In this document: positions 46,511 through 56,382 of the stretch, one piece after another | Numbering within the stretch: position 1 is the stretch's first letter | Layout of the letters: every line of letters begins with the position of its first letter | From: a virus | Lineage: Duplodnaviria > Caudoviricetes | Length of the DNA stretch: 64,000 bases | IMG/VR virus record: IMGVR_UViG_2706796350_000001 | Coordinates: 1 to 64,000 of that record | Direction: 5' to 3' (one strand) | Notes under the pieces: model-generated | What the model was told of the DNA's origin: nothing | Database searches by the model: none | The model's input: only the letters and a program-made list of their open reading frames with translations | Program-made: the position numbers and the translations under genes

Positions 46511-46978
46511 TCACTTCTTCTTGCGACCGCGAGTCTTCTTCTCGACCTTCACGAGCTGCCACGAAGCCTGAACCTCGTACTCACCCGTTGCCAGCATGCG
46601 GGAAAGAATCGACGAGACCATCGAAGGCGTGTACTTGTCCTTGCCGGTACGAGTGGTCAGCCCGTTGACCTTCTTGATTTCCTTCTCGGCCAGTGCGTTG
46701 ATTTCCGCACGGTCCGAAGCGCCGGTCACGAGGGTGGTGGCGATGATGGCCGAATCGGTGCCGACCTGGAAGCCCTCATCGGTGTACTCGATGGGATGCG
46801 GTTCGTAGGTCTGAGCCGTCTTCTTGGCGGCGGGCTTCCGAGTGGTCGCCTTGGTGGTCGTGGCCTTCTTGTTGGCCGGTGCTCGCTTTGCCGGGGTGGC
46901 CTTCCGAGCAGTGGTGGTCTTCTTGGTGGCAGGAGCCGAACGCTTACGGGGTGTCGGCTTCTTCTTCGCTGCGGCCAT
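46511..46978 (-). CDS. histone H1-like basic protein with C-terminal globular domain
   Basis: N-terminal ~55 aa rich in K/A/T/P (PAKR, PAAKK); GTGAGGA RBS. Confidence 0.75.
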   Translation of the reverse strand: MAAAKKKPTPRKRSAPATKKTTTARKATPAKRAPANKKATTTKATTRKPAAKKTAQTYEPHPIEYTDEGFQVGTDSAIIATTLVTGASDRAEINALAEKEIKKVNGLTTRTGKDKYTPSMVSSILSRMLATGEYEVQASWQLVKVEKKTRGRKKK

Positions 46979-47047
46979 GTTGTCCTCACTAGGTTTGGTG
47001 GGTTAGCAGTTCCTCGGTGTTGACGAACTGATGAACTAACGACACAG

Positions 47048-47077
47048 ACACTACACCTAAGTTGTCCACAGTGGCAA
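47048..47077 (-). promoter_or_regulatory. leftward sigma-A-like promoter for the replication operon
   Basis: TTGCCA-N18-TAGTGT on the minus strand, ~70 bp upstream of the 46978 start. Confidence 0.6.
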
Positions 47078-47089
47078 ACATGCAGCTAG

Positions 47090-47385
47090 AACCGATATTG
47101 CAAACTTACTCAACCAAGTTTTAAACCTGCATGGACTCTCTACTTATATATCTATCTTTATCTCTATAGGGGGTAAGTACTTTATTAACTTACTCGATCT
47201 ATGTAAGTACTTCTGTAATTACTCATCTACCAAAACTATAACTTATAGAACTAACGTATCTGGACTCTAAACCAGCCCTATGCAAGTCTAAACCAGTACT
47301 TTTAGGGTTGTAGCAAAGTGCTTGCAATTGCAAATAAGCCTTTGACCAGGGGTTTTAGTAACTTCAGGATCACATATAAGGGAAC
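47090..47385. other. AT-rich repeat/palindrome block, candidate replication origin or operator region
   Basis: Markedly AT-rich; GTAAGTACTT x2, TCTAAACCAG x2, palindromes CTATAACTTATAG and TTGCAATTGCAA; lies at the strand-switch point. Confidence 0.5.
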
Positions 47386-47387
47386 AG

Positions 47388-47416
47388 TTGACATCACTAT
47401 CCACATAGGGCATAAT
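47388..47416 (+). promoter_or_regulatory. rightward sigma-A promoter
   Basis: TTGACA-N17-CATAAT. Confidence 0.85.
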
Positions 47417-47421
47417 AGATC

Positions 47422-47990
47422 ATGCAAGACGTTGAAAACTAAAGCAGCGGACAGAGTAAGCGGCAACGCCCCTTCGGAAGATACGGGCCGGGCCGCAACG
47501 CGAGAGCCACTGAATATCGAAAATGGATCTAGCTGGTGAACCCAACGAGGTCTGTGCATGTACTGCGATCACCCGATACGGGGTGGCACGCGAGCTTCTG
47601 GACATAGGTAGACAGAACGCATGCATGGGCCTGCGGGGATAGATACGAGTGACAGACGTATCGACACTGCCAAAATCGCCAAGTGATGCGCGTGAGAACA
47701 GCAGTCATCCGTTTCGGAGTGGAAGTTAAAGCCTGTAGGGGCGAAGTACAACCGGAGCGACGATGACCCTTGCGGGTGTGCATGTGATGCGAGAAGTAGC
47801 GGAATCAGAAATCACGGTGCTGGTGTAGCGACAGACAGCTACCCCTCAGATCGACCGAGTGCGCAATCGTTTAGCCGAGGTTGCGGCGCATTCGGGGATA
47901 CCTAAACCATCGGCCCTACCTTATGGGTAGACCGTCCGACACTTGGCAACAACTGCCGCTGTAGTGAGCCAAGTGTCGAGGCGGTGTTCC
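47422..47990 (+). ncRNA. candidate large structured RNA or structured early leader
   Basis: Starts at the predicted TSS; no credible ORF; more than ten hairpins identified by eye. Confidence 0.5.
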
Positions 47991-48032
47991 ATGAGTCAGG
48001 AAAACCACCAACAGCAACATTAAGGAGTCACC

Positions 48033-48371
48033 ATGACTACACGTACCGCAACATTTGCACGCCGCCGCTTCACCGTCGAGAACATCGCAGGGCAGGACGT
48101 GCGCTTGCATCAGGGGTCGCCGTTCTGCGACCCGACCGGCGAAGCACCGATCGAGCTTCCGTTCGTCACTGAAAAGATCAGCGAGCGTCGATCGCACGGA
48201 ACGTGCATCGTGGACGGGTACTACTACGAGGTCAACTACTACCCGCACAACTACGCTTCCACTGGCGAGAACTGGTACGTGCTGGGCGTGGAAGACGAGC
48301 ACGGAACCGAGATTCACTACTCGGAGCACCGCACCATAGAAGACGCTAAGGCGTACGCAGCACTGATCTAG
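48033..48371 (+). CDS. hypothetical early protein
   Basis: TAAGGAG RBS. Confidence 0.75.
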   Translation: MTTRTATFARRRFTVENIAGQDVRLHQGSPFCDPTGEAPIELPFVTEKISERRSHGTCIVDGYYYEVNYYPHNYASTGENWYVLGVEDEHGTEIHYSEHRTIEDAKAYAALI

Positions 48372-55842: not shown

Positions 55843-56382
55843 ATGGACTTCAACCCGCTGAACGGATCGAACGGAACGGGACGCGGCGGTGAGGAATACA
55901 TCGTCCGCTCGTATGCAGAGATTCTGGAAAGCAACGGCCTGAGCACGTGTCCGTTCAACATTACCGCGTGCCGACTGTCCGTCATGGCTTGCGAACATCT
56001 GGATGCGAGTCTTGGCAATGACTTCAACTTCCAGGTCTTGTACTCGGAAACGATCGACGCGCCTGTGTTGTACGTCGGCGTTCACGACAGCGAAGGTGGG
56101 TTCTCGCCGATGCTGATGGTGATGACTTCCGAGTTCATCGGGCGGCTGCGTCTGTACTGCGGTGGTCCCGATTGCAATCACGAGGCGTGTGAAGCAATGC
56201 CCGAAGCACTAAAGGAGCAGGTGCATAAGCAGACGGTGAAAGCACTACGGGACGAAGAGCCGGAGGTGGACACGACAGACTTTGCGCCTATAGTGGATAG
56301 CATCGCCGACGAGTTGCCCTCGTTCGAGGACTTGGCAAAGTACTATCAACTCGGGGATGAAGGCGAAACGAAAGGAGGTTAG
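55843..56382 (+). CDS. hypothetical protein
   Basis: GAGG RBS; Cys-containing. Confidence 0.7.
   Translation: MDFNPLNGSNGTGRGGEEYIVRSYAEILESNGLSTCPFNITACRLSVMACEHLDASLGNDFNFQVLYSETIDAPVLYVGVHDSEGGFSPMLMVMTSEFIGRLRLYCGGPDCNHEACEAMPEALKEQVHKQTVKALRDEEPEVDTTDFAPIVDSIADELPSFEDLAKYYQLGDEGETKGG

Follow-up and report, generated by a model that had tools for sequence, protein, structure and literature searches.

A large covarying RNA element behind a near-consensus promoter in a Gordonia-type phage

What is transcribed from the best promoter of a phage genome, if no credible gene follows for about 610 bases? This question is raised by a locus in a stretch of 64,000 nucleotides (nt) of a virus of the Caudoviricetes (positions 1 to 64,000 of the IMG/VR record IMGVR_UViG_2706796350_000001), which is called the window in the following. 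The whole record has 83,324 bp, and its relatives characterize it as a Gordonia-type phage. The original prediction, made from the letters of the window, had proposed that a near-consensus promoter is followed by a large, highly structured non-coding RNA that does not resemble transfer-messenger RNA (tmRNA), RNase P or introns. Comparison with related phages leaves hardly any doubt that the sequence 47422-47995 is a real structured RNA element. The evidence for this element, its architecture and its possible functions are described below.

The gap behind the promoter and its covariation

The locus consists of the following features:

47388 to 47416, + strand: promoter of the sigma-A/sigma-70 type (TTGACA at 47388-93, 17-nt spacer, CATAAT at 47411-16)
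47422 to 47995, + strand: structured RNA body of about 575 nt, which together with an unstructured, CA-rich tail to 48032 would form the 5' leader of the rightward operon
48022 to 48027 and 48033 to 48371, + strand: Shine-Dalgarno (SD) sequence AAGGAG and first rightward open reading frame (ORF; 112 amino acids (aa), no family)

The promoter sequence was exactly as had been claimed. It is the sole match to 11 of the 12 consensus positions of sigma-70 on both strands of the whole genome, and the next-best match is a single site with 10 of 12 positions at 56267. From the sequence we infer a transcription start near 47422-24. Between this start and the SD sequence (48022) or the start codon (48033) no credible ORF is present. 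An ORF scan of the + strand from 47318 to 48032 revealed none longer than 73 aa, and the first gene with an SD sequence starts at 48033, so that the claim of a gap with only short ORFs was upheld. The base composition shifts from 35-40% GC at 47000-47400 to 55% GC throughout the candidate RNA, and the GC skew is +0.14 to +0.25 across 47500-47900.

The folding energy of the gap was compared with that of dinucleotide shuffles. For the + strand of 47422-48032 the minimum free energy was -222.7 kcal/mol (z = -3.15), and none of 221 shuffles was as low, in agreement with the predicted dense pairing. For the - strand the z-score was -1.28, and 15 of 160 shuffles were as low.

Metagenomic relatives were retrieved from Logan, ENA, JGI and IMG/VR with a small basic protein, which is encoded divergently next to the gap, as anchor. 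The loci carry labels: L041 is Chidiebere, L043 is DalanDe, L119 is ScarletRaider, L052 is a Logan contig, and L060 is a contig of JGI 3300039411. The RNA-bearing set consists of nine cultured phages of G. rubripertincta (the Chidiebere and UBSmoodge groups, cluster DQ; nine isolates in eleven GenBank records) and about six metagenomic lineages. Collinear, diverged homologous RNAs were found in about ten lineages, and their lengths range from 615 nt in the window to about 830 nt in the UBSmoodge group. Downstream of the promoter, blastn sees almost nothing between lineages, and with the gap DNA as query the phage collection gave zero matches in the near as well as in the distant mode. Short words recur in the same order, i.e., UACUGCGA, GGCACGCGAGCU, GUGACAG, AGUGGAA, AAGUACAACC, GUGAUGCGA, GAUCGACC, ACCGU, AACAAC..GUGAG and UCCAUSA. 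The sequence between these words differs between lineages, yet it stays self-complementary. The promoter is also conserved: the -35 region (TTGAC), the 17-nt spacer and an extended -10 region (CATAGGGCATAAT) are kept in the window, L002, L052, L063, L050 and L047, and a related form is present in the Chidiebere group.

A global MAFFT alignment across all lineages misaligned the domains. Covariation was analyzed for four elements:

47930 to 47986, + strand: universal 3' domain with the helices Pf and Pg (covariance model R1)
47550 to 47630, + strand: three-way-junction module of Pa, J1, Pb, J2, Pc and ACG (model R2)
47642 to 47662, + strand: hairpin with the invariant loop GUGACAG (47649-55), covariation in nine lineages
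47855 to 47864 paired with 47886 to 47895, + strand: 10-bp helix Pd, which has wholly different complementary arms in other lineages

R1 was built from five lineages, the window being excluded, and it finds the 3' domain in every other RNA-bearing lineage. The scores were 57.6 bits for L052, 46.6 bits for Chidiebere, 34.6 bits for 47930-47986 of the window (E = 1e-5), 22.5 bits for L066 and 22.3 bits for L063. In the model-fitted alignment of the 3' domain (A9), 97.8% of 179 cells were paired, and 13 of the 20 pairs were double-changed, in 38 cells. The covariation score was 0.48 versus 0.16 for shuffled alignments (0 of 500 reached it), and sliding the partner by one to three columns reduced pairing to 21-46%.

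R2 was built from six lineages. It found one copy in the window genome (78.4 bits) as well as copies that had not been part of the seed, namely a second copy in L050, L052 and L047, and a pair of copies in each of Chidiebere (L041), UBSmoodge (L042) and L055. In the corresponding alignment (A12) 98.6% of the cells were paired, 10 of the 11 pairs were double-changed, and the score was 1.00 versus 0.24 (0 of 500 shuffles). Two elements were aligned without a model. For the GUGACAG hairpin (ungapped MAFFT alignment of nine lineages) 82.5% pairing was found, all five pairs were double-changed, and the score was 0.79 versus 0.24 (0 of 500 shuffles). For helix Pd (plain MAFFT alignment of four lineages) the respective values were 92.5% and seven of ten pairs (0 of 500 shuffles).

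The comparison of the window with its nearest relative, L063, revealed 23 compensatory double changes in 136 consensus pairs. Even a near-identical strain from wastewater has two compensatory changes in the extension of Pa, i.e., 47550 G>A with 47630 C>U, and 47554 G>C with 47626 U>G. The modelled pairs contain 19 G.U cells versus 3 A.C cells, and therefore the + strand, which lies behind the promoter, is the folding strand. The covariation between homologues is thus strong across independent lineages, and the shuffled and slid controls fail.

If the gap did not contain a functional RNA, it would represent either coding sequence that has decayed or escaped annotation, or a spacer with a fortuitous fold. 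Gene callers have indeed placed short ORFs in some of the gaps, and an ORF of 41 aa is annotated in the respective stretch of ScarletRaider and FlyingTortilla. The short ORFs are not conserved, however, and neither a conserved frame nor indels in multiples of three characterize this stretch: no open frame in the gap is conserved across the relatives, and the window and L063 differ by indels of 1, 2 and 29 nt. As the substitutions are also paired across helices and all shuffled and slid controls fail, this explanation is extremely improbable. The annotated ORF (ScarletRaider gene 68, L119 872-997, and the same in FlyingTortilla) is listed as a hypothetical protein over the region of the junction module; this annotation is probably spurious.

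Known RNA families were searched with Rfam 15, which includes GOLLD, ROOL, HEARO, OLE, raiA, 6S, Ms1, tmRNA, RNase P, group I and group II introns, riboswitches and small ribozymes. No match was found in the whole window at gathering thresholds, in 47000-48200 at E<=10, or in six related loci at E<=0.1, and for the window and ten related loci ARAGORN reported neither a tRNA nor a tmRNA. The predicted dissimilarity to tmRNA, RNase P and introns therefore stands, as does the large structured RNA behind a strong promoter; in one point the picture departs from a free-standing non-coding RNA, as the RNA is probably made at least as an operon leader (see below). Hammerhead-like, k-turn-like and sarcin-ricin-like readings of conserved words are loose resemblances only, compared with Rfam. 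The RNA family is new, as neither a relative in Rfam nor a description in the literature searched was found; the newness concerns the family and not the kind of function.

Searches outside the anchored set were also negative. In viral contigs, searches with the word pattern AAGTACAACC..GTGATGCGA and with the -10 word yielded nothing beyond chance matches except for L002/L008, and a protein-anchored scan of JGI metagenome contigs did not yield relatives. The exact junction pattern TACTGCGA..GGCACGCGAGCT..ACG had 15 matches in genome contigs and 35 in contigs from metagenomes, none of which was credible; viral contigs gave 0 matches. The matches were rejected as chance, as all of them are inside protein-coding genes (frames of the YCDG..EAREL type) and score only 17-22 bits with R2. 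R2 gave no match in two actinobacterial genomes, and R1 gave none in a sample of 151 genomes from a single actinobacterial class.

Architecture of the RNA

The further elements, in the order from 5' to 3', are:

47440 to 47520, + strand: 5' domain with helices 47460-63/47493-96 and 47468-71/47485-88, only in L063, L052 and partly L050
47526 to 47530 paired with 47848 to 47852, + strand: long-range helix P_LR, predicted with RNAalifold, encloses about 320 nt; its 3' strand lies in the conserved word GAUCGACC (47848-56)
47556 to 47560 paired with 47620 to 47624, + strand: Pa of the junction module, extendable to 47550/47630
47561 to 47568, + strand: J1 (UACUGCGA) of the junction module
47569 to 47574 paired with 47581 to 47586, + strand: Pb of the junction module
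47587 to 47596, + strand: J2 (CACGCGAGCU) of the junction module
47597 to 47600 paired with 47613 to 47616, + strand: Pc of the junction module, with a 12-nt loop
47617 to 47619, + strand: ACG of the junction module
47718 to 47792, + strand: central conserved words AGUGGAA (47718-24), AAGUACAACC (47744-53) and GUGAUGCGA (47784-92), separated by variable hairpins
47825 to 47842, + strand: hairpin GUAGC/GCUAC, one compensatory pair versus L063 (47828/47839, G-C to A-U)
47916 to 47930, + strand: hairpin Pe (CUACC/GGUAG), immediately followed by the conserved ACCGU (47931-35)
47937 to 47947 paired with 47968 to 47978, + strand: Pf, encloses an internal loop of AACAA (47948-52) and UGA (47965-67)
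47953 to 47956 paired with 47961 to 47964, + strand: Pg with loop CGCU, C-NN-C/G-NN-G, the two middle pairs vary among lineages
47988 to 47995, + strand: tail word UCCAUSA, present in six lineages, with a pairing partner that differs by lineage

Many of these helices had already been proposed from the window, and most of the proposed hairpins are real. Seven of the 12 proposed helices gained compensatory support, namely 47570-85, 47596-617, 47642-62, 47825-42, 47855-95, 47916-30 and the terminal stem (47937-78). The hairpins 47708-18 and 47766-77 are retained in relatives, without compensatory support. In the 5' domain the proposals had to be revised. The pairing GCCC/GGGC (47468-88) is invariant and thus uninformative. 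The hairpin 47491-508 is not supported, because L063 has CAC instead of CGC and the change is compensated in the helix 47460-63/47493-96 instead. The same helix, with its compensatory pair at 47461/47495, competes with the proposed GNRA hairpin (47460-69); this pair is the only compensatory one in the 5' domain. The 5' domain of L052 is a near letter-for-letter match to the window (47443-47530), while the remainder of both RNAs is strongly diverged, which suggests a mosaic exchange or recombination inside the RNA gene.

The helix P_LR was followed across the lineages by eye, and the arms GAUCU/AGAUC, GAUCG/CGAUC, AAUCG/CGAUU, GAUG/CAUC and GAUGA/UCAUC were found. A competing closing helix of AUGGA (47523-27) and UCCAU (47989-93) was rejected, as it is broken by a G>A change in L050 that is compensated in P_LR instead. 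P_LR encloses one to three three-way-junction modules with invariant junction words; the words do not change while the helices Pa, Pb and Pc vary. One copy of the module is present in the window and in L063, two are present in L050, L052, L047 and L002, and two to three in the Chidiebere and UBSmoodge groups, with a third CACGCKAGC word in the Chidiebere group. In the L066 type the searches with R1 and R2 revealed the 3' domain and no junction module. Two copies of a GAGUACAU-hairpin-UGAUACG unit stand in place of the module there (L066 437-1221 and L061 1-817), and this unit is related to AAGUACAACC...GUGAUGCGA of the window.

The 3' half contains alternative pairings. The loop of Pd (GCCGA, 47875-79) may pair with UCGGC (47910-14) as a candidate pseudoknot, and reading by eye showed that one A-U pair is replaced by U-A in L052 and L050. 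The arms of Pe are replaced elsewhere by UCACC/GGUGA, CGCUUG/CAAGCG, CCAAU/AUUGG and CGCUG/CAGCG, which are still complementary (by eye). The segment 47920-27 can instead pair with 47988-95, and this alternative has three compensatory changes in the comparison of the window with L063. A further possible partner of the tail word in L052, L050, L002 and L047 is AUGGA, which is situated between the SD sequence and the start codon, and L047 has the compensatory form UCUAU/AUAGA (by eye).

A probable operon leader and its possible functions

In no lineage is the fold separated from the first ORF by a terminator-like site on the + strand or by a second promoter, and therefore the rightward operon probably has the RNA at least as its 5' leader. 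This makes it very probable, as far as signals in the sequence can tell, that it is an untranslated leader. The distance from the end of the 3' domain to the SD sequence of whichever ORF comes first is 10-60 nt in all cases; in the window a CA-rich unstructured stretch lies between the tail word and the SD sequence or ATG. The first ORF itself is not homologous between lineages, and a search with that of the window (48033-48371) gave no relatives. Nearly every gene of the window genome is co-directional with and downstream of the RNA promoter, and in the 17 kb after the RNA terminator-like sites are rarer on the + strand than expected by chance.

The reading that we tentatively prefer is a cis-acting leader that would recruit a factor and act at the level of the operon. 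It was chosen because the only consensus promoter, the lack of a separating terminator, the 3' domain abutting non-homologous first ORFs and the variation of module copy number were considered together. The sole promoter with 11 of 12 consensus positions, the rarity of terminator-like sites downstream, the co-directional genes, the possible pairing of the tail word beside the SD sequence in four lineages, the protein gene at the place of the RNA in DalanDe-type phages (see below) and the positive GC skew were also counted in its favor. Transcription would be started by the host RNA polymerase at the single consensus sigma-A promoter. The conserved junctions and loops of the nascent RNA would recruit a factor, which may be RNA polymerase itself or some protein of the host or the phage, and the compact, G-rich and C-poor fold could deny entry to Rho and to nucleases that act from the 5' end. 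The very long co-directional transcription unit would thereby be kept elongating, in the manner of put or EAR, and the 3' end of the fold would set the access to the first ribosome-binding site.

The known cis-acting elements for processive antitermination, put of HK022 and EAR of Bacillus, are similarly non-coding and are situated directly behind an early promoter that heads a long transcription unit. This arrangement is also found here, as the RNA lies directly behind the promoter and is followed by co-directional genes without an intervening terminator-like site. The architecture is different, however: put consists of two adjacent stem-loops of about 70 nt and EAR has about 120 nt. The present RNA comprises multiple domains, is 600-830 nt long and has no Rfam match.

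Several points weigh against the preferred reading. A similarity to put or EAR was not found in sequence or structure, and downstream terminators that would have to be overridden were not found on the + strand within 17 kb, Rho sites not being predictable. A length of 600-800 nt with pseudoknot candidates far exceeds what known antitermination elements and 5' stabilisers need. The alignments A9 and A12 were fitted to models and lean towards structure, while A15 and A16 (the GUGACAG hairpin and Pd) were unfitted. Last, a module count of one, two, three or none (L066 type) fits a titrating sponge better than an element that rides on RNA polymerase.

The last point leads to the main alternative, a possible, if doubtful, function in trans as sponge, decoy or scaffold. 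The leader, or a stable piece processed from it, would accumulate early, and its repeated junction modules and conserved loops would sequester or bring together a protein of the host or the phage, e.g., RNA polymerase, an RNase or a defence protein; in a variant of this explanation the RNA would assemble with itself like GOLLD and ROOL. The copy number of the modules varies between close lineages, as in sponges of the CsrB type, and invariant junction words amid three variable helices are typical of a specific binding site. The RNA is also situated behind the strongest promoter of the genome, and its size and its location in phages recall GOLLD and ROOL. Signals for termination or processing that could set a separate RNA free were not found, however, and the L066 type retains the 3' domain without the module. 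Like CsrB and RsmZ and the RNA polymerase-binding RNAs 6S and Ms1, this RNA has a strong promoter and repeated modules that resemble binding sites and vary in number among relatives. In contrast to CsrB and RsmZ, the modules are three-way junctions of 70-100 nt and not GGA hairpins, in contrast to 6S and Ms1 a mimic of an open promoter is absent, and none of these families has an Rfam match here.

The modules also have a feature of riboswitch aptamers, i.e., invariant junctions surrounded by the covarying helices Pa, Pb and Pc. They could be tandem aptamers for a metabolite or a signalling nucleotide, with the alternative pairings at the 3' end as an expression platform that gates early genes. 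Tandem riboswitches, e.g., for glycine, likewise have conserved junction nucleotides, variable helices and tandem copies in a 5' leader. In addition, the pairings around 47916-30 and 47988-95 are mutually exclusive and each has compensatory support, and the tail can pair beside the SD sequence in four lineages. Such a ligand-sensing leader is nevertheless unlikely. The modules lie deep within P_LR, about 350 nt before the SD sequence, without an adjoining platform, the first ORF differs by lineage and thus no association with a gene class exists, no riboswitch model matched, and the search of bacterial genomes did not reveal the exact motif.

Irrespective of the mode of action, GOLLD and ROOL are similar in that they are phage-borne, have 0.6-0.8 kb and many covarying helices with pseudoknot candidates, and had no known function when they were found. 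This RNA differs from them in having no match to their Rfam models at E<=10, in not being beside tRNAs, in being probably an operon leader rather than a separate gene, and in its restriction to one clade of Gordonia-type phages. To our knowledge, very few bacterial or phage non-coding RNAs of more than 500 nt with complex conserved folds have been described, i.e., OLE, GOLLD, ROOL, HEARO and raiA, each of which opened new biology. It is conceivable, albeit speculative, that the present RNA represents a new class of ornate phage RNAs, in which one to three junction modules would be specific receptors. Their ligand would be the RNA polymerase of the host, a protein of defence or RNA decay, or a signalling nucleotide, and the RNA, as the first one made upon infection, would reprogram or disarm the host. 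It could then be a put-like modifier of RNA polymerase ten times larger than the known ones, or a counter-defence sponge. Its covariation is unusually clean, and the repeated junction module resembles a specific binding site. Nine cultured lytic isolates from SEA-PHAGES on G. rubripertincta NRRL B-16540, a BSL-1 host, carry the RNA, which makes it tractable for RNA-seq, recombineering, pull-downs and cryo-electron microscopy.

Related phages and neighbouring genes

Two further features are situated upstream of the promoter:

46511 to 46978, - strand: gene for a small lysine-rich protein, divergent from the RNA, synteny anchor for the relatives (alignment A3; 21 homologues found)
47284 to 47351, without strand: conserved block upstream of the promoter with words at 47284-91, 47301-09, 47320-27 and 47343-51 (TGACCAGGG)

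The upstream block lies 40-100 bp before the -35 region. Its words are common to L002 and recur in Chidiebere and L063, and in Chidiebere TGACCAGGG sits within the near-palindrome CCCCTGACCAGGGG. The block may be an operator through which the early promoter is regulated.

The divergent gene and its homologues always adjoin the gap. The N-terminal half of the protein is rich in Lys, Ala and Thr and resembles a histone tail, and a domain of about 80 aa at the C-terminus is conserved; no Pfam or PHROG family was matched. On the minus strand upstream of the RNA this gene is accompanied by genes for a primase and a DnaB-like helicase. The DnaB of the window is 64% identical to that of the G. rubripertincta phages Chidiebere, Kabocha, Schomber, Gray, Hanem, ChisanaKitsune, UBSmoodge, FlyingTortilla and ScarletRaider, 56% identical to that of DalanDe, and 49% identical to that of the Brevibacterium phage Cantare. 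FlyingTortilla and ScarletRaider belong to cluster DQ and have circularly permuted genomes (PMC12160450), and UBSmoodge is a circularly permuted myovirus (PMC11984182).

A gap without genes of 0.9-1.8 kb was found at the syntenic place in all relatives except the DalanDe type. In the annotated records of Gordonia phages about 1.17 kb between the gene for the basic protein and the first rightward gene are unannotated. The announcement of UBSmoodge describes "a gap of 1,178 bp" and regards a "1000 + bp gap" as characteristic of the closest relatives, without offering an explanation (PMC11984182). The RNA accounts for this gap in UBSmoodge and its closest relatives. In DalanDe (L043 2687-3699) and in L058 (2466-3501) the gap has only about 0.4 kb, the RNA is lacking, and the product of the first rightward gene, of about 205 aa, ends in a DUF6011 domain. 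This gene may be a positional replacement of the RNA.

The neighbourhood of the primase, DnaB and basic-protein genes and of a block with 35-40% GC (47000-47400) brings up a role in replication. The transcript would prime or activate an origin, in the style of RNA II of ColE1 or of the origin transcripts of T4 and T7, or the folded strand would act as single-stranded DNA, and the G-rich non-template strand would favor R-loops. For priming, the junction modules, the long-range helix of 320 nt and a 3' domain abutting the SD sequence are unnecessary, however, and the promoter is directed away from the AT-rich block. Furthermore, the DalanDe-type phages retain the basic-protein, DnaB and primase genes and lack the RNA. 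A replication element is thus very unlikely.

Three observations on further relatives were made. In the more distant L060 (1685-3501) a gap of 1.8 kb without genes is present at the syntenic place. The searches with R1, R2 and Rfam and for tRNAs all remained without a match in this gap, and its sole resemblance to the RNA family is a word similar to GACC..CAACAAC; it may hold a different large RNA. In the L066 lineage a gene for an HNH endonuclease is inserted beside the basic-protein gene. Last, contigs that are 90-100% identical to the window phage (44000-52000) were found in wastewater metagenomes from at least two studies. Some of the wastewater runs are labelled as RNA-Seq; they are probably DNA, and their contigs cover the coding flanks as well.

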